A DNA stretch of 64,000 nucleotides from Escherichia phage vB_EcoP_WFI101126: the sequence record NC_070991.1; one strand, written 5' to 3'. Numbering within the stretch: position 1 is the stretch's first letter; the number at the start of each line of letters is the position of its first letter. The translations under genes were made by a program, and so were the position numbers. The notes under the pieces were generated by a model that saw only the letters and a program-made list of their open reading frames with translations, was not told the DNA's origin and ran no database searches. Positions 1,497 through 64,000 of the stretch are shown in pieces.

Positions 1497-4400
1497 ATGG
1501 CGTTGTATCCAATAAAATCACTCGGTGCTGTCGGTGTTATTGCTGACCAAGCACCTACTGATTTAGCTCCTAATGCTTTCACTAACGCTATAAACGCTCG
1601 GTTTGTTGAGCAGAGAGTTTTTAAGACGGGGGGCAACGCCCCTCTTTCTTACGTAGATGAAGATAAAGACTTAACCCCTCTGTCTTTCATATCTATGCCT
1701 TTCGATTACTATAGTGCAGGTAATAGCTTTCTTATTGTAGGCACTGACAAGAAGCTATATAAACTGACAGATGAAAGCTTGACTGATATCAGCAGAAAAG
1801 TCGCTACGGTGACTAAAAAAGCCTCTGCTACTATCAAAATATATCCTGTGGTCTCTAGGATTACTCCTAAAGAGTCTACTATTTCCATGAACTTCAATCA
1901 AACTAAATCTTTAGAAGTTACAATCTCTCCGGAAGATGCTAATAACCCTGAACTTGTTTGGAGTGTTAGTAACTCTTCTTACGGTCAGATTACTGTAGAC
2001 CCTACTGACTCCAAGAAAGCCTCTTTAACCTCTTTGAATAAAGAAGGCAATCTCGTAGTTACAGTTCAGACTAAAGACGAGTCTGTATCAGCTCAAATTG
2101 CTGTCAACATCATCGATGGAGATTCAGGTATCTTCTTGAGTCAAGATACTGTAACAGTTCGTAAAGGTGGTAATACCACAATAACTGCGGTGACTGGTAA
2201 AACTCCTGTAAGTTGGTCCACTACTAACGGTTCTATCGTTTCTGTGACTCCTAATGCTAACACACTCACGGCAGTGCTTGTTGCTAATGGAGAAGGAACA
2301 GCAACTATCACAGCGGATAACGGAACTAAAACTGCATCATGCGTTGTTAATGTAATACCACAGATTGACAGTATCACTCTGAGTCAAACAGATGTTACCA
2401 TTAACAGAGGGACTCAATATATTCTTACAGCTACAGTATCTCCAACGAATGCTCCTAATAAAAACATAACATGGACTTCCTCTAACCCGAATATTGCTAC
2501 AATATCTGGTACAGGTACAGAGGCAACCATTACTGCGATTACAGCTGGCTTCACTGAGATTACCGCTACTACTCAAGAAGGCAGCAGAACCGCTGTCTGT
2601 ACAGTTCGTGTAGATTTGTCTGGAAGGATGATGAGAACCTCTCTTATGGCTATGTCTTCTACTGAACCAGATGCTCCAGAAGTGGTTGAGGATGTAGTAG
2701 TTCCTGAGTCAGAAGAGGTTTTGTATTTTGCATCACCTTCCTCTGGGATAGATACTACTGGAATGTCTGAAGGGAATAGCTTCTATGATTATTCAAACGT
2801 GGATGACATGGAGGGTTTTGCAAGAGCTTCTCTTTTTGCCACCCCTTTAGATTCTGTAACGTTAGATGTAGTTAGTGCTTCTTTGGATGTAGGAGAGGAG
2901 ATTGTTATTACAGCTACAGCTTCTCCAGAGGGTGATTATTCTTACTTGTGGTCTGTTGATAAGACTGGGTATGTATCGACTACTTCTGTAACTGGCAAGT
3001 CTATCAAACTTACAGCTCTTCGTAAAGGTGAGATTAACATAACATGTTCTGTCAGTCAAATGACACAGAGGGATTATGATGCGTTTGATGATTACCCTTG
3101 GTATCATGCTGTTATATCAAACTGTGTTGTTGCTACTACTCACTATGAAACCCCTCAAGTAAAAGAGTTCGAATCTGAATATTTTACCGATCTTCCGGGA
3201 TGGGGAGAACAAACAGTAGTGGATAACGATGGGAACCCCTCGGTTAAGAAGTTCAACTGGAAGTGTGAAAGGGTTCGCTCTTTTAATAACAGACTCTTTG
3301 CTCTGAATATGAGGGAGTCAAACGCTTCTGGTGTTACAACTAACTACCCGCTCCGTCTTCGTTGGTCTAATTTTGCTAATGAGAACAAAGCTCCTACACT
3401 GTGGGATGACTTTGCCTATGATCGTTTAGTAACATCTGACTTAGCTTCGAATATAGTGGGACAGACTGAGGCTCTGGAAAATGGTTATGCTGGTTACATT
3501 GATTTAGCAGACTCTAACGGGAGTTTAATTGATATCCTACCTCTTAAAGATTACTTGTTCGTTTACACAGAGTTTGAAACGTACATTGGTTCTCCAACTA
3601 ATAACACGTATCAACCACTGATGTTCAAGAAACTCTTTAATGACTCTGGTATCCTTGCCCCTGAGTGTGTAGTAGAAGTTGAAGGCAGTCACTTCGTTGT
3701 TACTCAGAACGACGTGATTCTACACAACGGTGCAACTAAGAAGTCAATTGCTTCCAACCGTGTCAAGAATATGTTGATTAATGAGATATGTCTGGTCAAC
3801 CCGTTAGCTACCAGAGTTCACTTACATCAAGATAAAAAAGAGGTTTGGATTCTTTATGTAGGTCCGGGAGAGCCTAAGGAAAGCTATGCTTGTACTAAAG
3901 CTGCTGTATGGAATTACGAGTTTGATACTTGGTCTTTCCGTACAATACCTTACGCTCAGTGTATTGGTTTGGTTGATCCCCCTGTTCTTGAGAGAGGTCC
4001 AATCTGGGCTGATTTCCAAGAAATCTCTTGGGATGATCCGTCAATAAAAGAGCTAGTCTGGAGGAAAGATGCAACAAACTTCCGTCAGAGGATAACCATA
4101 GTAGGTTCTTTCTTACGTGGATTCTATCAAGTGGATATTGGTGCTTTAGATTATTTCTATGATAGACTCAATGATACTGTTATAGAAAAACCCTTGGAGA
4201 TGAGGTTAGAGAGAACAGGCATTGATTTTGATAATGTCACTAATGAATGGAATCAGAAGCATGTCAACAGATTCAGACCTCAAACAACAGGTTCTGGAAC
4301 TTATGTATTCGAAGCAGGAGGCAGTCAATTCTCAAACGAATATGGTCATCCACACACATCTAAAACATACACAATCGGTGTTGATAGGCATGTCTCTGTG

Positions 4401-4508
4401 AGACTGAACCATCCATACCTTTTCTATAATGTTATAGATAATGATGTTAACAGTAATGCTGCTATCAATGGTTTAACGATAGAGTTTGCTGTTGGCGGGC
4501 GGAGATAA
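1497..4508 (+). CDS. large virion protein with tandem bacterial Ig-like (Big_2) domains, tail spike/decoration-like
   Basis: 1003 aa; three Big_2-like repeats (e.g. LTATVSPTNAPNKNITWTSSNPNIATIS...TAVCTVRV); AGGAGG SD. Confidence 0.55.
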   Translation: MALYPIKSLGAVGVIADQAPTDLAPNAFTNAINARFVEQRVFKTGGNAPLSYVDEDKDLTPLSFISMPFDYYSAGNSFLIVGTDKKLYKLTDESLTDISRKVATVTKKASATIKIYPVVSRITPKESTISMNFNQTKSLEVTISPEDANNPELVWSVSNSSYGQITVDPTDSKKASLTSLNKEGNLVVTVQTKDESVSAQIAVNIIDGDSGIFLSQDTVTVRKGGNTTITAVTGKTPVSWSTTNGSIVSVTPNANTLTAVLVANGEGTATITADNGTKTASCVVNVIPQIDSITLSQTDVTINRGTQYILTATVSPTNAPNKNITWTSSNPNIATISGTGTEATITAITAGFTEITATTQEGSRTAVCTVRVDLSGRMMRTSLMAMSSTEPDAPEVVEDVVVPESEEVLYFASPSSGIDTTGMSEGNSFYDYSNVDDMEGFARASLFATPLDSVTLDVVSASLDVGEEIVITATASPEGDYSYLWSVDKTGYVSTTSVTGKSIKLTALRKGEINITCSVSQMTQRDYDAFDDYPWYHAVISNCVVATTHYETPQVKEFESEYFTDLPGWGEQTVVDNDGNPSVKKFNWKCERVRSFNNRLFALNMRESNASGVTTNYPLRLRWSNFANENKAPTLWDDFAYDRLVTSDLASNIVGQTEALENGYAGYIDLADSNGSLIDILPLKDYLFVYTEFETYIGSPTNNTYQPLMFKKLFNDSGILAPECVVEVEGSHFVVTQNDVILHNGATKKSIASNRVKNMLINEICLVNPLATRVHLHQDKKEVWILYVGPGEPKESYACTKAAVWNYEFDTWSFRTIPYAQCIGLVDPPVLERGPIWADFQEISWDDPSIKELVWRKDATNFRQRITIVGSFLRGFYQVDIGALDYFYDRLNDTVIEKPLEMRLERTGIDFDNVTNEWNQKHVNRFRPQTTGSGTYVFEAGGSQFSNEYGHPHTSKTYTIGVDRHVSVRLNHPYLFYNVIDNDVNSNAAINGLTIEFAVGGRR

Positions 4509-4513
4509 CAACA

Positions 4514-4541
4514 AGGGGCTTCGTGCCCCTTTTATTGTTTT
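4514..4541 (+). terminator. intrinsic terminator/attenuator inside late operon
   Basis: GGGGC-ttcgt-GCCCC hairpin followed by TTTTATTGTTTT immediately after stop of 1497..4508. Confidence 0.5.
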
Positions 4542-4551
4542 GGAGGAACTT

Positions 4552-5562
4552 ATGGGTGCAGGTGGTTTTCGTAAGAACACAGGTCGCAACAACACCACAC
4601 TCCCGTACAACGTTGGGTTTCTCAATAATGTACAGGATACAGAAAATTATAACGTGGCTGTGTATGATGAACTACAGAAAGTAAGCACAGCTACTAATCA
4701 GATGTTCCAAGCTATAGATGAGATTCATGATGAAATTGATGTTCGTATCAAAGCTCTAAATGCGATGAATCTACAGTTTGATGAACTTGAGAATAGAATC
4801 ACTACAGAGATTGAAACTGCTATTGCAGATATTCAAACACAGATGGGTAATCTATCCACTGATGACATTTGGGATAACTCAGTACAACCACCTGTCAAGC
4901 TTGAAAGTTCTATTTCAGGGATTAAGACGAGCATTGAAGGGAATGACTTAAAGATTCAAACTGTTCAAGGCATCGTCAATGATCAAGGGGAGGAGATAGC
5001 TCTAGTCCAAACAGAACTGACTTCACAGGGGCAACAGATTACAGATGTTGATGGAAGAGTTACTACAGTACAAAACTCTCTTTCTCAATATATGAAGTTA
5101 TCCGAATATGAAGCCACTTGGGGTGTCAACTCTTCTGTAAACGGAAAATATGCTGGGGTTAAATTGACTAACAATGGAGTTAACAGCAAGTTCCAAGTAA
5201 CAGCAGATAAGTTTGTTGTTGGTAATGGAACAACAGGGAACACTCCTTTTGTTTTTGAAAATGGTAGAGCAAAGATGGAGTTTGCTGATATAAAAAATGT
5301 CAACATAACTACTGCTCAGGTCGCTAATGCTAGAATACAGTGGGCCCAAATTGATAATGTCAACATCACAAACGCACAAATTCAGAGTTTGTCCGCTGAT
5401 AAAATTACAGCTGGTTCTATGAGTGGGTCTAATTGGAGACTAACTGTTGGTGGTGATTTTGTCTTGGGTGGTACGGGTGGTTCTCAATTATGGATGAATG
5501 GAAGCAGAATGGATTTTTATGATGGAAGTGGTGTTCTCAGAATAAGAATAGGGAGTTGGTAA
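4552..5562 (+). CDS. tail fibre protein (coiled-coil shaft)
   Basis: ATG 7 nt after GGAGG; heptad-rich middle region; C-terminal repeated NVNITxAQ motifs; track ORF start at 4486 spans the terminator so 4552 preferred. Confidence 0.5.
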   Translation: MGAGGFRKNTGRNNTTLPYNVGFLNNVQDTENYNVAVYDELQKVSTATNQMFQAIDEIHDEIDVRIKALNAMNLQFDELENRITTEIETAIADIQTQMGNLSTDDIWDNSVQPPVKLESSISGIKTSIEGNDLKIQTVQGIVNDQGEEIALVQTELTSQGQQITDVDGRVTTVQNSLSQYMKLSEYEATWGVNSSVNGKYAGVKLTNNGVNSKFQVTADKFVVGNGTTGNTPFVFENGRAKMEFADIKNVNITTAQVANARIQWAQIDNVNITNAQIQSLSADKITAGSMSGSNWRLTVGGDFVLGGTGGSQLWMNGSRMDFYDGSGVLRIRIGSW

Positions 5563-52605: not shown

Positions 52606-52681
52606 TGGTGCGCCCTACAGGACTCGAACCTGTAACCAATAGCTTAGAAGGCTACTGCTCTATCCATTGAGCTAAGAGCGC
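52606..52681 (-). tRNA. tRNA-Arg (anticodon UCU), CCA encoded
   Basis: 76 nt; 7-bp acceptor stem with one G-U, D-arm GCTC/GAGC, anticodon loop CTTCTAA, T-arm ACAGG-TTCGAGT-CCTGT, 3' ACCA. Confidence 0.85.
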
Positions 52682-57876: not shown

Positions 57877-58100
57877 TTTCTTAATCCCAGCTTTCTTAAG
57901 ATACGGCCTAACGTTGTTTCTTGCGTGATAATATAGCTGATCGCTTCACGTTCCAACGTTTCAATCTTCATTGGCGACGGATACCATTCACCGGTAATAA
58001 CACATTTACATTCAACGCCATACTTTTTAGATAGGCGGTAATGTTGACCGTTGACAAGATTTCTATAGATCGTGGTATGTGTAATTAACATGATCGTCAC
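57873..58100 (-). CDS. hypothetical protein
   Basis: ORF track. Confidence 0.3.
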   Translation of the reverse strand: MTIMLITHTTIYRNLVNGQHYRLSKKYGVECKCVITGEWYPSPMKIETLEREAISYIITQETTLGRILRKLGLRK

Positions 58101-58144
58101 CTTTGATTAGATTCTTTGATTAATGCACTGAATCAATGCACTGA

Positions 58145-58179
58145 TAAAAGAAAAGGCGCTACCCGTTAAGATAGCGCCT
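58145..58179 (-). terminator. intrinsic terminator
   Basis: 8-bp perfect stem AGGCGCTA/TAGCGCCT plus T-rich tract on - strand. Confidence 0.55.
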
Positions 58180-58202
58180 TATGTTTATTCGAATTGTCTT
58201 AC

Positions 58203-59111
58203 TTATGCCGCCTGACGTGCCGCCATAATCTCAGCCGCTTTACGCAACACTTCTTCCTCTTCTTCTTTCGCAGCTTGTTCGGTACGGGTAGCAACCGTTG
58301 AAGAGATACGACCGCGCAGTCCTTCTAACTTCTCCTGCATAGCTGCGATGGTCTTTTCCATTTCATCAGCGTATGAATCGAGGGATTCTAATTCCTTGCT
58401 TGATGCGTTCATCAGATAATCGTCAGAGATCGCTACCGTCGAGGCCGTTACTTTCTTGATGAGCGAGTCAAAGGATTTTTTAACCTTGCCGACTTCTTCA
58501 CTTAAGGCGATAGTGTTATCGCTAGTAGCGCCGTTGCGCTCATCAGCCAGCAATTTGGCTTCGATACGGATTGCATTCAAGCGTTCAACTAAAGCGTAAA
58601 TATCCTGATTAAAATCTTCCTTGTTTTTCGCCGGTATTTGCAGGTGTGCCGCCACGTTGTCATTGCAACCTTTGTAGAAGTTAGGATTATCCACTTCAAT
58701 TGCACGACCTAAAGCAAAGTTTTCAAAAGCGTTTGACCAACGGGCGCGGTTTTGTTCCATTTTGGCCTTAATTTGCGCTTCTTTCGCGTCTTCTTTAGCT
58801 TTCGCCTCACCTTCCAGATTAATCCACTTTTTACGACCGTTCGCCGCATCAGTGTTAAACTTGATAGGAGTTAAGAAAGTAATTGCAGTGGCAATAACAT
58901 CCATATCACGGAAACGTTCAGTTAACAAGAAGTCAACCGCCGCCTGCAATACGTCCAGCTTCTTACCATTACTGCGGAAGTGCTGTAAGTGTCCTAACAG
59001 GAAGTTAGAAACATCTTGTTTGATCGCCGCGTTATTACTGCGAATGTTGTTAGCCAGAGCATTAAAACCGGATTCGTTAACCAGAGTAAAGATTTTAGCC
59101 ATGATATTCAC
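58203..59111 (-). CDS. early protein with coiled-coil C-terminus, function unknown
   Basis: First ORF downstream of the long promoter-rich leader. Confidence 0.4.
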   Translation of the reverse strand: MNIMAKIFTLVNESGFNALANNIRSNNAAIKQDVSNFLLGHLQHFRSNGKKLDVLQAAVDFLLTERFRDMDVIATAITFLTPIKFNTDAANGRKKWINLEGEAKAKEDAKEAQIKAKMEQNRARWSNAFENFALGRAIEVDNPNFYKGCNDNVAAHLQIPAKNKEDFNQDIYALVERLNAIRIEAKLLADERNGATSDNTIALSEEVGKVKKSFDSLIKKVTASTVAISDDYLMNASSKELESLDSYADEMEKTIAAMQEKLEGLRGRISSTVATRTEQAAKEEEEEVLRKAAEIMAARQAA

Positions 59112-60022
59112 CTTTCAATTGTAAGGGCGCTATTGCCCCGCTCTCTATGAGCTTGTTTAAGTCACTATTAACTTAACTATAACCACTCGTTGTTAAGTGG
59201 TTATAGGTAAGCGGGGCGGTCTTATCAGGAGTTAACCTTGCCGCCCCTTATCCGTGATGTTTCATCTGGTATCTTTAATTAGTCGCTATAAACGAAGCCG
59301 ACCTGATAGCGATGATCAATCATCACAATAAGGCTATGCGTCCGACTCTATTTAATTACATTACTGTAACCGTCGGCAATATCGTCCACTTTGTTTTCGC
59401 TCCCGCTTATCCTTTTATATCAGCTCTCTATCGCTAGTCATCGCCCACTACGGGATACTATTGCGAAAGAGTCACTAACCGCCTATTATTCCGGCGTTTT
59501 ATATCTTTCAGCAGGTTTACTACATAACCCGACTATGTACTTTCATCTTATAATGAATCTCAAGCCGTTCACATCGTAAACGTTCGCATTAAACCTTATT
59601 GTTAAATAGCAATTTGCCACTTTTTAACCACTCACCGCCGCTCTCAATTGAGCGTTATTTCTTCGGGCTTGCCTACCCTGATTAACTTCTTTCACCGTAG
59701 CACCTTGTTAGCGATGACCGCCGCTACCCTTAACCGTGGGCGATTAGCTTAAGTCTTTGCGTATACTCGATGAATCCGTTTATCAGTGGTGACGTTTCCA
59801 GCAAGGGATTGTAAGGCTGTTTTCTCTGATAGTTTAGAGAGTCTTACATCGTTTTGTCTGGTATGTTATCCGATGGTTATTATCATCTAACATATTCAAC
59901 CGATATAGGAGAATGTTTAAATTATTAAAGAGCGGTAAATCTATCAGTGTGCTTTCTCACACTATGCAACTGTTAGCCGTTGTTACGCTTTCCTTAAGCG
60001 GTGATTTGCTTAAGTGATGCTC

Positions 60023-60051
60023 ATTATGAATCATGTTGTTTTCGCTGTCAA
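60023..60051 (-). promoter_or_regulatory. sigma70-type early promoter P1 (TTGACA-17-CATAAT)
   Basis: Perfect -35 hexamer, 17-nt spacer, 5/6 -10. Confidence 0.5.
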
Positions 60052-60654
60052 CCGCTTTTTAATCTTTTTCGTCGTTCCCGCTATTGGGAGGATATATCAA
60101 TCAGCTTTATTTGATTGAAGATTAAGCGGTGATGCTTAACTTATGATTCATATTGTTAAAGAGCGTTAGCCTTTTAGAGTGTCTGCTAATCACTGTCACA
60201 TTTAAGGCTTACTTATTCATTAACGGGCCGCCTACACCCGAACTACTCGCTGCACTATGTGCCACCTTTCCCGCGATACGTTGATTTGGGAACTAGTTAG
60301 CGATGTTTTGCTAACTTGTGGTTAGTATGGACTACTTTAACCACGTTTGCAAGCTCTTTTTATCATCTTCTTTTAATTCCTTTCCCTTATCTCGCGTGAA
60401 TCTTTGCGAAAGGGCAAGATGATAAGTCTGATTTGTCTTTTAGGAATCTAGTGCGCTTTCAAGCATTAATCTTTTGAAAGTATCGAACAAATAAGGCTTA
60501 TTGATATTGCTTATTGTCCGCCTGCGTCACGTATGAATCAGGAATCAATTCTACCGATTAACTGAGCGCCTTATAGTAATGACGTCGCCGCCACCCGTAA
60601 GACAAATCATATTTTTAAAGAGCGGGATATTTCACGTCATCGCTGACTATGCTC

Positions 60655-60683
60655 ACTATATATCAGGCTTTTTCCGGTGTCAA
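60655..60683 (-). promoter_or_regulatory. sigma70-type early promoter P2 (TTGACA-17-TATAGT)
   Basis: Perfect -35, 17-nt spacer, 5/6 -10. Confidence 0.55.
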
Positions 60684-60858
60684 TACTCTTTTTAAGAATA
60701 TTTTCACTTTCTAGCCTGATTTTTAAAGAGCGTAGCACTTTCATTGTGCGTCTTACTGTCGGTATTCCTACCGCTCCCCGTTGAAGCCTTTTACCGTGAT
60801 GCTAATCACCTATCGAGGAGTTTTTACTACTTGTTACTTACTGCTTACTACGGGATTC

Positions 60859-60886
60859 ATATTACTATACAGGAAAACCCTGTCAA
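60859..60886 (-). promoter_or_regulatory. sigma70-type early promoter P3 (TTGACA-16-TAATAT)
   Basis: Perfect -35; spacer resembles P4. Confidence 0.45.
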
Positions 60887-61084
60887 TACCCTTTTTTCAA
60901 ATTATTTTATATCTTACTGTTTTATAAAGGAATTTATTTTAGGGAGGATAGGAACTACAAAGAAATCAGGGGATAGAGGAACGGGCGCGCGTGATACATC
61001 ATAGGAAACGGCTTGTAAAGCAATAATAAGCGGCCTATAACGCATCACAACGAGCTAAAAGGGAGTAAGGCATACAATCACCCT

Positions 61085-61114
61085 ATAAAATAGAAAAGCC
61101 TCGCATAGAGGCTT
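61085..61114 (-). terminator. intrinsic terminator
   Basis: AAGCCTC-gcata-GAGGCTT hairpin plus T-rich tract on - strand. Confidence 0.5.
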
Positions 61115-61189
61115 ATAGGAAGGATTAGAGAATCAGATAGATTATGACCATAGGCATGACTACGGCACAATAAAGAAGGAAGACTAATC

Positions 61190-61555
61190 CTATGGATTTA
61201 AGCATTGACCGTTACCGGATTCAATTTCATTCATGGACTCATCAAAGAGTGTCAACGATGAGCGCATCAAGTGATCTATCGTAATTTGTTTACCGGTATT
61301 TTCGTTTACCAGTAGAATAATTTTACTATCTGATTGCACATGATCGAAATCATTTACATGCAAAATAATAACTTTAGGTGACTTTTTACCAGTCGAATAA
61401 TTTTCGATCAAATAGGTGCACTGTAAACCGTCAACCGTAGCAGGGGAGAATGTTGCAGCTTTAACGCTACCCATAGATGACAGCAGGACACCTAACAGGA
61501 GAACAACCAGAAAGAAGCCTACAAATACTTTCACTACAAATTTGATAATACCCAT
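61190..61555 (-). CDS. secreted/membrane early protein
   Basis: Hydrophobic signal-like N-terminus. Confidence 0.4.
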   Translation of the reverse strand: MGIIKFVVKVFVGFFLVVLLLGVLLSSMGSVKAATFSPATVDGLQCTYLIENYSTGKKSPKVIILHVNDFDHVQSDSKIILLVNENTGKQITIDHLMRSSLTLFDESMNEIESGNGQCLNP

Positions 61556-61647
61556 AATGATAAACCTTTAGTTAGAGAATATAAGAATAGAGCATATCAG
61601 CGATGAATAACGCCACGGTAACAACGAACAAGCAACGCCAAAAATAA

Positions 61648-61950
61648 TCATTCTTCTTCATTGCTATCCTCGCCAAAAAATGCTACGCTAATCTGTTCCA
61701 CTTCTTCCAGCGACAACAAAATCCCACGTTGGGCTAAATACTTCCCAACGGTTATATAATCTTGCACCAAACAAACAACGGGAAAGCGGATAGTTTGAAT
61801 CTCACCCTTAGAAAGAAAAGACAAATAACCAGCGTCGACTGATTCATCAAAGGATAACGTAACGCCACCGTAATTATGCGTATCAATTAACGCAATAGTT
61901 TCATTCCCCATAACGTTTCCAATCCTTATTGTATTTGAGAATAGACACAT
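61648..61950 (-). CDS. hypothetical early protein
   Basis: ORF track. Confidence 0.3.
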   Translation of the reverse strand: MCLFSNTIRIGNVMGNETIALIDTHNYGGVTLSFDESVDAGYLSFLSKGEIQTIRFPVVCLVQDYITVGKYLAQRGILLSLEEVEQISVAFFGEDSNEEE

Positions 61951-62122
61951 ACTCAGGGCCGGACAAAGTGCCGCCTAAGTAAGTAACCGTCATTCGTGCG
62001 CTAAACTCTGAAAGGTTGCACAATACGGAAAGGGGTACTCGACTATCACCGCGACTACTTGCAACTAACACAACATTATCAAAGATAGTCACGCTATCGT
62101 TAACAATAACGCCATTAACCAT
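61901..62122 (-). CDS. hypothetical early protein
   Basis: ORF track. Confidence 0.3.
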   Translation of the reverse strand: MVNGVIVNDSVTIFDNVVLVASSRGDSRVPLSVLCNLSEFSARMTVTYLGGTLSGPEYVSILKYNKDWKRYGE

Positions 62123-62366
62123 GTATTAATCCCTCACTTAACAGGTTAGCCAGTGACAAATCACCGTCAATATAGATTGACTTGAAATCATCGCGGTTAA
62201 TATCAATACGCACCAATTGAAGCCATTTTTTGGCCTCATTAAAGCTCATGGAACAAAAAGCAACAACGGGAACTATAATCTGACCATCGCGCATATTAAA
62301 CTCGATAGATTGCCCACCAACAAAACAAGAAAAACCATTAGATAATCTGACTTCTTTGATAGCCAT
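62115..62366 (-). CDS. hypothetical early protein
   Basis: ORF track. Confidence 0.3.
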   Translation of the reverse strand: MAIKEVRLSNGFSCFVGGQSIEFNMRDGQIIVPVVAFCSMSFNEAKKWLQLVRIDINRDDFKSIYIDGDLSLANLLSEGLIHG

Positions 62367-62390
62367 TTTTACACTCCCAAAATAGGTTAT

Positions 62391-63263
62391 TTACTTACTA
62401 GCCTTAATGCAGTTGGCTAAATTAACGTGAACGGTATAAACAGCGTTATCAGCGTTATTATAAACGGTAGTGGCGATCATCGACTCATTAACCGGACCAT
62501 AACTCACTAGATTGGTTACAGCTTTAACGTCTTCGTAACGTTGTACAGTGCCAAATGTAACCATATCCGAGTCACTATCGGTGCGCTTGAGAACTAGATC
62601 ATTGTTAGGCTGATTGTCTAACGTCTTAGACTGAAAGAGAACGCCATTATTAGTTACGTTGCTAAATTTCATTTTTAATACAATGGTACTTCCATCACTA
62701 TCAGCACCGTTACAAATCATCCAACCTTTATTGATGGAACTAGAGAAGACACTAGCCGCATCAGTTGCAGGAGCAGGACTAGCAACAGCCTTATCAGAAA
62801 GAGATGTGACCAGTGCACTAACACCGATAGCTGCAACCAGTGCATAACTAGCCAGATTGACAGACTTCATTATCTTACTCGCAACAGTAGGCTTGATTGG
62901 CTGTTTCTTAGTTTTCTTGTTCCATGCTTCAACCATGACAGACAAGCGGGATAATTCAGCTTTCACATCGCGGCACGACTCGGGCCAATCCTTCTGATTC
63001 CAGCTATCTAAATTTGCCTGAATATAACAATTGATAGCGTCCTGCATATCAGTAAAACCGTTTTCTTTGAACGTGCTTTCATCTTCACACTGTAAAGCGT
63101 TCGCAGTAGAGTTAATGATCAAGCAAGCCAACATTACAGAGTTTTTGAATCCTTTACGTGCGCTTTCGTTTTCCATCCACGCATCAGGACTACCAACGGA
63201 TAAGCCTAAAGAGGAAAGGCTTTCGTTTGCTTTGTTCAACTGGTTAATTGCAGCTTTTGACAT
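62391..63263 (-). CDS. early membrane-associated protein
   Basis: First gene after promoter P4; central TM helix. Confidence 0.4.
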   Translation of the reverse strand: MSKAAINQLNKANESLSSLGLSVGSPDAWMENESARKGFKNSVMLACLIINSTANALQCEDESTFKENGFTDMQDAINCYIQANLDSWNQKDWPESCRDVKAELSRLSVMVEAWNKKTKKQPIKPTVASKIMKSVNLASYALVAAIGVSALVTSLSDKAVASPAPATDAASVFSSSINKGWMICNGADSDGSTIVLKMKFSNVTNNGVLFQSKTLDNQPNNDLVLKRTDSDSDMVTFGTVQRYEDVKAVTNLVSYGPVNESMIATTVYNNADNAVYTVHVNLANCIKASK

Positions 63264-63308
63264 TTTGTTAATCCTTATGGTTGATGAAAACTACAAACTA
63301 CAATCGCA

Positions 63309-63336
63309 ACTATATAATAAAGGAAAAAGCTGTCAA
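63309..63336 (-). promoter_or_regulatory. sigma70-type early promoter P4 (TTGACA-16-TATAGT)
   Basis: Perfect -35, 16-nt spacer, 5/6 -10, about 40 nt upstream of ATG 63263. Confidence 0.55.
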
Positions 63337-64000
63337 CCATTTATTTTCTAACTTTCTTGCATCTTACTGAAAACTGAAGGAATTTAATTTACTAAACTTC
63401 CCATACTCAGAGAATCAGCTTACTGACTATTGTTACTTTATAACACTAATCCTACGGGTAGCAGACCAACATACCAGGACAAACGGGGATACAACAACCG
63501 CAGAACAGACCACGGGGAAACATAGCCAGATAGTGCGGTAATAATATACCACTTAAATAATTAGTTAACTATTAATAGCATTACTCAAACATCAAAGACG
63601 TTCGTACTTCGTACTCACAAAGGCACGCTGAAAAAGAAAAGAATAAACATCAATTATTAAAAGAAATATAATCATCCACTTAATTAATACATACATCATT
63701 ATTGCACTCATAATCATTACTATTGAAACTATTTACATTCAAACTATGGGGAGTGGTGGCTGTCATTAATGGCATTATTAGTCTGCTAATTAGTGCAGCA
63801 CAGTGCTAGCCGCTTCCCGCGTGTTTCCTAAAAAGGGGGAGTCCTCATTTAAAAAAGGGTTATTGGCAATGCCTTTACCTTCCTTTTCAACGTTCCACCT
63901 TTCCCCGTGCCTACTCCCCGTAATTATTTCCCCGTGTATACCATCCTATTCATTAGCTACCCGTTTATTTAGTTCCCCTTTAGAGAGTGAGAGAAAGGCT

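Follow-up and report, generated by a model that had tools for sequence, protein, structure and literature searches.

Positions 59112-61189 of Escherichia phage vB_EcoP_WFI101126 (record NC_070991.1; the window below is the whole stretch of 64,000 nucleotides that was analysed) contain no conserved open reading frame (ORF) and lie directly upstream of the gene gp124 on the minus strand. We think it likely that this region is a non-coding transcription unit with the build of an rRNA-operon leader, in which promoters are followed by boxA sites for Nus factors, transcription becomes resistant to Rho, and a folded RNA is produced. The region matches 96-99 phage records, all of them phiEco32-group Escherichia and Shigella phages (Gordonclarkvirinae: Kuravirus, Suseptimavirus, Nieuwekanaalvirus) with Ptacy1532 the closest at 98%, and the matches place the window in a phiEco32-like phage of the Gordonclarkvirinae. 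The equivalent in phiEco32, whose linear genome is 77,554 bp long, is the unannotated interval 72796-74728, the gp124/gp125 spacer, which lies about 2.8 kb short of the right end.

The connection with rRNA operons comes from a 10-mer, TTAAAGAGCG, four copies of which had been listed in an earlier description made from the letters alone (the sequence-only reading) without being identified as boxA. Three of these copies are at 59925, 60615 and 60723, as listed there, and the second sits at 60156 rather than 60157. Read on the transcribed (minus) strand, the repeat is GCTCTTTAANA, which agrees at every position with the boxA (NusB/NusE) consensus of enterobacteria. As GCTCTTTAA, the complement of the TTAAAGAGC given in that description, it occurs four times in the window against 1.0 expected, each time in this region and on the minus strand. 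The gamma-proteobacterial boxA consensus is GYTCTTTAANA, in which Nus association depends critically on the C at position 4 (Baniulyte et al. 2017). Perfect matches to this consensus number four in the 64 kb as against 0.48 expected, a count that none of 100 shuffles reached; all lie within 59923-60731 on the transcribed strand, and the position-4 C is present in every copy (4/4). From upstream to downstream, they are:

60721-60731, minus strand: boxA-1, GCTCTTTAAAA; about 120 nt past the predicted P3 start, with a core that is invariant in relatives
60613-60623, minus strand: boxA-2, GCTCTTTAAAA; about 25 nt past the predicted P2 start
60154-60164, minus strand: boxA-3, GCTCTTTAACA; without a promoter of its own in this phage
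59923-59933, minus strand: boxA-4, GCTCTTTAATA; about 80 nt past the predicted P1 start

BoxA-3 is identical at 12 of 13 bases to the rrn boxA, which we take to be TGCTCTTTAACAA, and it includes the rrn core GCTCTTTAACAA. The copies are in the sense orientation and ahead of untranslated RNA, three of them 25-120 nt below predicted promoters, and P4, a promoter that serves a translated gene, has no boxA, such that boxA is seen only where the RNA is untranslated. A fifth boxA-like site, the invariant TGCTATTTAACAA (59611-59599), was not counted as a Nus site because its position 4 is A. As transcribed from P3, boxA-1 with its 3' flank (CUACGCUCUUUAAAAAUCAGGCU, 60713-60735) is 78% complementary to the P2 spacer and -10 element (60647-60669), with an AGGCU/AGCCU core that is kept in relatives; this pairing is either a chance match or a possible means of masking boxA-1 in P3 transcripts.

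The promoters themselves are the four best sigma70-type matches in 58000-64000 (10-11 of 12 positions). All are on the minus strand, at exactly the coordinates that the sequence-only reading had given:

60859-60886, minus strand: promoter P3, TTGACA-16-TAATAT; A/T-rich UP-like tract upstream at about 60887-60910; kept in relatives
60655-60683, minus strand: promoter P2, TTGACA-17-TATAGT; UP-like A-tract upstream; kept in relatives
60023-60051, minus strand: promoter P1, TTGACA-17-CATAAT; UP-like A-tract upstream; kept in relatives
63309-63336, minus strand: promoter P4, a paralogue of P3; translated gene directly after it and no boxA

By sequence, they have the properties of phiEco32-like early sigma70 promoters: a TTGACA -35 hexamer, a spacer of 16-17 nt, a -10 element close to TATAAT and an orientation towards early genes. 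The A-tracts lie at about -40 to -60 in all four and resemble UP elements, going by what we take to be the UP consensus. P3 and P4 share not only their spacer, as had been noticed, but upstream sequence as well (ATCTTACTG...AAGGAATTTAxTTT). This tandem sigma70 array pointing towards gp124 lends support to the earlier proposal of an early leader read by host RNA polymerase (RNAP). Three tandem sigma70 early promoters in the gp125-gp124 spacer have been described for phiEco32 and SU10, and since the SU10 genome paper (PMC4281155) reports them, they are not new. No paper linking boxA with phiEco32 was found in the literature searched, which did not extend to the primary phiEco32 papers, and the Kuravirus papers on YF01 and SU10 (PMC4281155) do not use "non-coding" or "intergenic" for the region, which the latter describes as a spacer region with three promoters. 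What does appear to be new is the recognition of the repeat as boxA, together with the large and conserved RNA fold presented below.

Two intrinsic terminators bracket the unit, and the order of its parts is therefore [P3, P2, P1]-leader-gp124-terminator:

61096-61114, minus strand: intrinsic terminator downstream of gp125; 7-bp stem with 4 GC pairs, then a T-run; a terminator is annotated there in SU10
58153-58180, minus strand: strong intrinsic terminator just past gp124; 12-bp stem with 6 GC pairs, then a T-run; annotated there in SU7

The first is predicted to end the P4 transcription unit and so to mark the upstream limit of the leader unit. The second precedes the remaining early genes, and no convincing sigma70 promoter was found before the next gene.

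In 22 genomes that diverge by up to 26%, the last boxA and the ATG of gp124 are 826-836 nt apart with hardly any indels between them, and these roughly 830 nt are a large conserved structured RNA on the minus strand. Its parts, ending with the start of the gene that follows, are:

59623-59921, minus strand: leader domain I; closing helix 59921-59909/59636-59623, which begins 2 nt after boxA-4
59325-59602, minus strand: leader domain II; closing helix 59602-59585/59340-59325
59124-59324, minus strand: 3' hairpin row, helices 29-37; includes 59206-59196/59187-59177 and GGGGCGG/CCGCCCC at 59247-59241/59219-59213
59100-59115, minus strand: gp124 Shine-Dalgarno sequence AAAGGTGA (59115-59108) and ATG (59102-59100); 299 amino acids

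The fold was derived with RNAalifold from 26 distinct leaders and comprises 237 pairs, of which 76 show compensatory double changes, with an energy of -242.6 kcal/mol. In this structure 99.2% of cells are paired, and 77 pairs have changed on both sides, as against 33.3±3.1 in shuffles (none of 500 reached the observed count) and 6-10 when the partner was slid by 1-3 columns. Because RNAalifold favours covarying pairs, controls were run through the same pipeline. Five column-shuffled alignments yielded 2-12 compensatory pairs and -90 to -103 kcal/mol, and the gp124 coding sequences of the same 26 genomes, at equal divergence, yielded 11 pairs and -79.8 kcal/mol. The antisense strand reached -160.6 kcal/mol. 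For the window's leader as a single sequence, the values were -250 kcal/mol (z-score -8.5) in the sense and -217 kcal/mol (z-score -5.0) in the antisense direction. Many invariant G-U pairs mark the minus strand as the RNA strand, and together with the stronger pairing of that strand they argue for selection on RNA and not on duplex DNA.

An independent test used homologues that had played no part in building the structure. A protein search found gp124 homologues on Logan contigs at 68-71% and 50% identity, and each of these contigs has an ORF-free gap of 3.0-3.4 kb before the gp124 homologue, with sigma70-type promoters and with boxA in the sense orientation only; in these divergent homologues the last boxA lies 870-921 nt before the ATG. 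Their leaders are 46-58% identical in nucleotide sequence to Kuravirus leaders, and a sequence profile of the latter finds them at E-values of 1e-23 to 1e-117; in several the match spans the whole leader, and in the most divergent it covers about two thirds. Of the pairs in the structure, 70-86% are retained by seven distant homologues whose alignment had used sequence alone, against 32-46% with slid partners, and these homologues contribute 282 compensatory cells. When 17 Kuravirus-type and 7 distant leaders are aligned together with MAFFT, 90.9% of cells are paired (79.9% in shuffles), 142 of the 237 pairs have changed on both sides (78±5 in shuffles, with 0/500 reaching that number, and 53-74 when slid), and the covariation score is 0.357 versus 0.168. 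The compensatory changes thus exceed what phylogenetic and positional controls produce and are strand-specific, as is generally expected of a conserved structured RNA. In four Logan contigs (about 1560-5000 in each), the gap lies between a terminase cluster and the gp124 homologue, with some 1.5 kb upstream of the promoter/boxA array; this 1.5 kb probably includes the genome ends and terminal repeats.

The closing helix of domain I (helix 5) is 100% paired, with three pairs showing double changes, and distant homologues keep 8-11 of its 10-11 pairs. That of domain II retains 10-14 of 14-15 pairs in all seven distant homologues, its 5' arm overlapping the invariant boxA-like TGCTATTTAACAATAAGG (59611-59594), which has A at position 4. 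The 3' hairpins keep 9-11 of 11 pairs, with 1-6 compensatory changes per distant homologue. Between the helices stand invariant unpaired blocks such as GCCCACGG, UAUGUAGUAAA, CCCGUAGUGGGCGAUG and GUGAUGAUUGAUCAUCGCU, which are candidates for tertiary or protein contacts. Two features of the sequence-only reading find their place in or beside this fold once their coordinates are corrected. Its palindrome CTATAACCACT-n8-AGTGGTTATAG exists at 59177-59206 rather than 59190-59219 and is one helix of the much larger structure, and its direct repeat beginning TTAAGCGGTGAT exists at 59994 and 60122 rather than 59986 and 60121 and corresponds to RNA hairpins on the minus strand. The suggestion that the region could encode non-coding RNAs is thus supported by a covarying fold of about 830 nt on that strand. 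The covariance-model search proposed along with it found no Rfam 15 family in the region, either at the gathering threshold or at E<=10 (best E-value 0.14, with scores far below gathering). Elsewhere in the window, the sole Rfam or ARAGORN match is a tRNA-Arg (anticodon TCT) at 52606-52681 on the minus strand. Host mimicry was rejected, as the region resembles no sequence in any of 5,426 complete E. coli genomes.

The strand preference also bears on the idea that the region acts as DNA, be it an origin, a packaging site or a T7-like promoter cluster for genome entry or for soaking up RNAP, with the RNA as a by-product. Strong promoters are indeed clustered near a genome end, as in T7 A1-A3, the AT skew is strongly negative in the region, and the gap of divergent relatives lies next to the terminase cluster, which makes it probable that the genome ends fall within it. 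Conserved pairing with many G-U pairs that is much stronger on the minus strand speaks for RNA, however, and an origin or packaging site, which the sequence-only reading had proposed, gains no support: the region has no DnaA boxes (the seven in the window are all elsewhere and at chance frequency), no tandem repeats or iterons and no turn in cumulative GC skew, and its position is about 2.8 kb inside the right terminus as judged from phiEco32. A T7-like entry function is an analogy that would leave the conserved base pairing unexplained. We therefore consider a DNA-level role very unlikely.

Less likely still is that the region holds small protein-coding genes that have escaped annotation. Some records (e.g. 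Paul, EK5, CHD5UKE1) annotate 1-10 hypothetical ORFs here, but these disagree in frame, length and strand from genome to genome. No ORF in 59103-61189 is conserved, and ORFs in the gap, including those on the plus strand, vary in frame and length across 22 relatives. The minus strand has no ORF of at least 30 codons in 59112-60636, and a 3-nt periodicity of substitutions or variable columns was not found in the gap among the 22 genomes. Hidden ORFs were accordingly rejected for want of codon periodicity and conserved frames, and the earlier description of the stretch as ORF-free holds. The gap is the largest in the window when ORFs of at least 60 or at least 80 amino acids are considered and the second largest for at least 100; a second ORF-poor stretch, at 63352-64000 (at least 649 bp to the window end), lies upstream of P4 towards the right genome end. 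The lower boundary is 59103, since gp124 begins at ATG 59102. The mechanical call for this gene (GTG at 59111, 302 amino acids) is too long: the GTG is inside the Shine-Dalgarno sequence, and annotated homologues and their alignment give the ATG. Clues to the function of gp124 were absent from the PHROG (unknown), Pfam (sub-threshold coiled-coil-like matches only) and PDB (no sequence match) searches, and its AlphaFold model is too poor for structure searching, with a predicted local distance difference test score (pLDDT) of 63 and a predicted template modelling score (pTM) of 0.30. On the other side of the gap, the labels "terminase" for the 121-amino-acid gp125 homologue (61193-61555, minus strand) and "polymerase" for an 83-amino-acid protein (62118-62366, minus strand) come from PHROG and GenBank. 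Both look like misannotations of small early proteins that have been propagated; the gp125 homologue has at most a weak YobH-like match in Pfam.

How might such a unit work? Long untranslated RNAs are a classic substrate of Rho, from which rRNA operons and CRISPR arrays escape through Nus complexes nucleated at boxA (PMC7665894; Baniulyte et al. 2017). For the phage leader we infer the Nus, Rho and folding steps from sequence identity to such well-studied elements. Host sigma70 RNAP would initiate at P3, P2 and P1, each with its UP-like A-tract, and, if the leader behaves as rrn operons, lambda nut sites and CRISPR-array leaders do, the four sense boxA sites on the nascent RNA would recruit NusB/NusE(S10). 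NusA, NusG and SuhB would then join to convert RNAP into a Rho-resistant complex able to cross 0.9-1.8 kb of untranslated RNA and reach gp124, while the roughly 830 nt past the last boxA would fold co-transcriptionally into a multi-domain RNA, probably chaperoned by the Nus-modified polymerase. In the model of the rRNA transcription antitermination complex (rrnTAC; PMC10250234), NusB keeps boxA attached to the polymerase, so that the adjoining leader strand is retained at the exit channel until the trailer strand arrives. In the phage RNA, two long-range helices have 5' strands that begin 2 nt after a boxA, one after boxA-4 and the other after boxA-2, an arrangement that may parallel this tethering. 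The helix strand itself is not boxC-like in sequence, and its offset is 2 nt as against 18-19 nt for the rrn boxC.

Several observations weigh against this explanation. We found neither a boxC-like GU-rich element nor a consistent boxB hairpin with the boxA copies, and RNAalifold pairs part of boxA-4 upstream (59993-59986/59934-59927), a pairing that shows no covariation and would occlude the site if real. Complexes of the rrn type read poorly through intrinsic terminators, such that boxA may not explain expression of the genes beyond 58153-58180. On the structural side, RNAalifold picks pairs using covariation, which makes the within-family counts optimistic; this bias is what the controls and the out-of-sample test address. 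Some helices (e.g. 59793-59778/59686-59671) are poorly kept in distant homologues, where alignment error and true divergence are inseparable.

A lambda-type nut system would deal with the terminator at 58153-58180: a phage N-like protein bound to a hairpin beside boxA would let RNAP pass intrinsic terminators, including this one, into the early genes. A strong intrinsic terminator does separate gp124 from the other early genes, and the authors of a study of the related phage 7-11 suspected an undefined antitermination mechanism there. A 6-bp hairpin, UUAAGC-AUCACC-GCUUAA (60122-60139), lies 14 nt downstream of boxA-3, and the start of the P1 transcript can form a related one (59993-60014, read from the sequence) with the same AUCACC loop. 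Nevertheless, we regard a system of this type as unlikely because the boxB-like hairpin follows only boxA-3 and is not conserved, whereas lambda-type nut sites would have a boxB by each boxA. The P1 hairpin is deleted in TH34 and PAS59 and absent from the consensus fold, and neither loop has the form of a GNRA-like pentaloop. An arginine-rich protein resembling N was not identified, although no search for one was made.

A separate question is what the RNA is for. One reading is that it is a very long 5' untranslated region (UTR) that acts in cis on the translation, stability or processing of gp124 mRNA (e.g. by RNase III, as in T7) and has no role of its own. This is compatible with the boxA part of the rrn-like explanation and differs from it only on the RNA's purpose, and we consider it a real possibility, though short of an even chance. 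The RNA is always directly upstream of a gp124 homologue at a conserved distance from the last boxA, no terminator stands between the two, the terminators bracket leader and gp124 together, and the 3' hairpin row stops about 10 nt before the Shine-Dalgarno sequence. That sequence, however, is unpaired in the consensus fold, and some 240 conserved pairs, two closed domains and invariant unpaired blocks far exceed the needs of known translational control elements. Alternatively, and here our proposal is a tentative and somewhat more doubtful one, the leader of roughly 830-920 nt may represent a new class of large, structured phage RNAs that act independently, whether in a ribonucleoprotein with the protein of the ever-adjacent gp124 or by diverting host machinery as a decoy or hijacker, the targets being Nus factors, RNAP, RNases or a defence system. 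If so, the phage would have copied the rRNA production line, with its UP-element promoters, boxA and TAC-assisted folding, for bulk early RNA; the RNA would be made in quantity within the first minutes of infection; and its boxA-flanked cassettes would serve as interchangeable modules that pass from one coliphage to another, unrelated one through recombination at boxA.

In 22 Gordonclarkvirinae genomes and 8 metagenome contigs, the gap is an array of modules, each a TTGACA promoter leading to boxA, with 3-5 boxA copies per gap in the sense strand whose 9-nt core is invariant while flanks and cassettes vary. The comparison with related phages that the sequence-only reading had called for thus shows both the promoter/boxA array and the leader fold to be conserved; pattern scans of viral contigs and metagenomes returned close relatives only. 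Mosaic breakpoints among the relatives fall at 60165/6, 60350, 60425-7, 60611-24, 60732-42 and 60972-85, and those at 60165/6, 60611-24 and 60732-42 are at or beside boxA copies, so boxA seems to double as a homologous-recombination joint for the exchange of promoter and RNA cassettes. Two cassettes and one further element illustrate the arrangement:

60424-60611, minus strand: RNA cassette, about 190 nt; long-range closing helix 60611-60600/60435-60424, whose 5' strand begins 2 nt after boxA-2
60166-60350, minus strand: variable cassette, replaced in phiEco32, SU10 and Paul by a segment of about 40 bp with an extra promoter, TTGACAAGCTAACACGATGTGTTAAGCT
60774-60820, minus strand: structured element near the start of the P3 transcript, with CUCCUCG/CGGGGAG as its outer stem and GUGAU-UAGC-AUCAC as its inner hairpin, the pairing taken from a reading of the sequence

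The first of these, with its bounding boxA (60424-60623), is present or absent among Kuraviruses and recurs at 75% identity, with two flanking boxA copies, in the otherwise dissimilar phage PJNS034; in TacPo2, a relative of PJNS034, there is a single boxA and the cassette is absent. RNAalifold on 13 copies gave 54 pairs, 7 of them with double changes; the cassette also contains an inverted repeat (I5), and the closing helix differs between the window and PJNS034 by two compensatory changes. PJNS034 (PP391266, 2372-4195) and Pantoea phage TacPo2 (2500-4123) have a conserved ORF-free gap of their own, of 1.6-1.8 kb, which lies between divergent early and terminase clusters and is 72% identical between the Escherichia and the Pantoea phage. 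It has a P1-like promoter and an identical 24-mer around boxA (GATTCATATTGTTAAAGAGCGTTA), with the shared cassette in PJNS034 only. In nhmmer, BLASTP and hhalign comparisons, neither this leader nor its first gene showed homology to its Kuravirus counterpart (the leader and gp124, respectively), and what is common to the two groups is the promoter/boxA modules and the one cassette. The element at 60774-60820 has a near-identical 46-nt block as its match just 3' of a TTGACA promoter in the unrelated 42-kb phage contig EC22.5-2 (OR845139, 3001-3084; counterpart in the window, 60741-60824). This block can fold into two stems on the minus strand, and early transcripts of different phages may have it in common as a 5' RNA module.

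Antitermination by boxA and Nus factors is textbook knowledge for rRNA operons and lambdoid prophages and has recently been extended to CRISPR arrays. A virulent phage with four consensus boxA copies behind rRNA-like promoters would be a new setting for it, and the array is a candidate for the mechanism suspected in phage 7-11. The leader RNA, with about 240 base pairs conserved to about 50% identity, is absent from Rfam, and large structured RNAs are rare, with functions that are mostly unknown. Its function should be directly testable because the promoters and the partner gene are defined and the phages (phiEco32, SU10, BASEL Bas86-94) are culturable. More generally, the result suggests that other ORF-free gaps of phage genomes are worth screening for boxA and covariation.

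Among known systems, the E. coli rrn leader and its rrnTAC (NusA/B/E/G, SuhB, S4) share with the phage unit tandem strong sigma70 promoters with UP-like A-tracts, an identical boxA core, a long untranslated structured product and a long-range closing helix whose 5' strand lies just past boxA. The phage unit differs in belonging to a virulent phage, in its series of four boxA copies, where rrn leaders and spacers have one each, in showing no boxC or regular boxB, and in a product that lacks similarity to rRNA or E. coli sequence and is followed by a protein gene. In lambda nut sites, too, boxA is carried on nascent RNA from phage early promoters, with a core matching CGCTCTT(T)A; here, in contrast, there is no consistent boxB and no N has been identified (none was searched for), and the phage, a virulent one, later turns to a sigma factor of its own. 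The phage copies also fit the rrn consensus better than does lambda's own boxA, presumably CGCUCUUA. The T7 early leader has three tandem strong host-RNAP promoters (A1, A2, A3) near the genome end, upstream of gene 0.3, and is processed by RNase III; it resembles the present leader in those promoters running into early genes and in hairpins before the first gene, but the present leader is 2-4 times longer and has boxA modules and a covariation-supported multi-domain fold. CRISPR-array leaders (PMC7665894; Baniulyte et al. 2017) share the consensus GYTCTTTAANA and the need of a long untranslated RNA for boxA against Rho, whereas the phage has one large folded RNA plus mRNA in place of a repeat array, and several boxA copies, each in a promoter/cassette module. 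GOLLD, ROOL, OLE, HEARO and raiA are similar in their size of several hundred nucleotides, multi-way junctions, covarying long-range helices and invariant unpaired blocks, and some are phage-borne; unlike them, the leader RNA has no Rfam 15 match, is fused to an mRNA, is driven by promoter-boxA modules and has so far been found only beside gp124-family genes in coliphage-like contigs. Our verdict is that the boxA array and the RNA fold together constitute a new phage variant of rrn/nut antitermination, one that feeds a new family of large structured RNAs.

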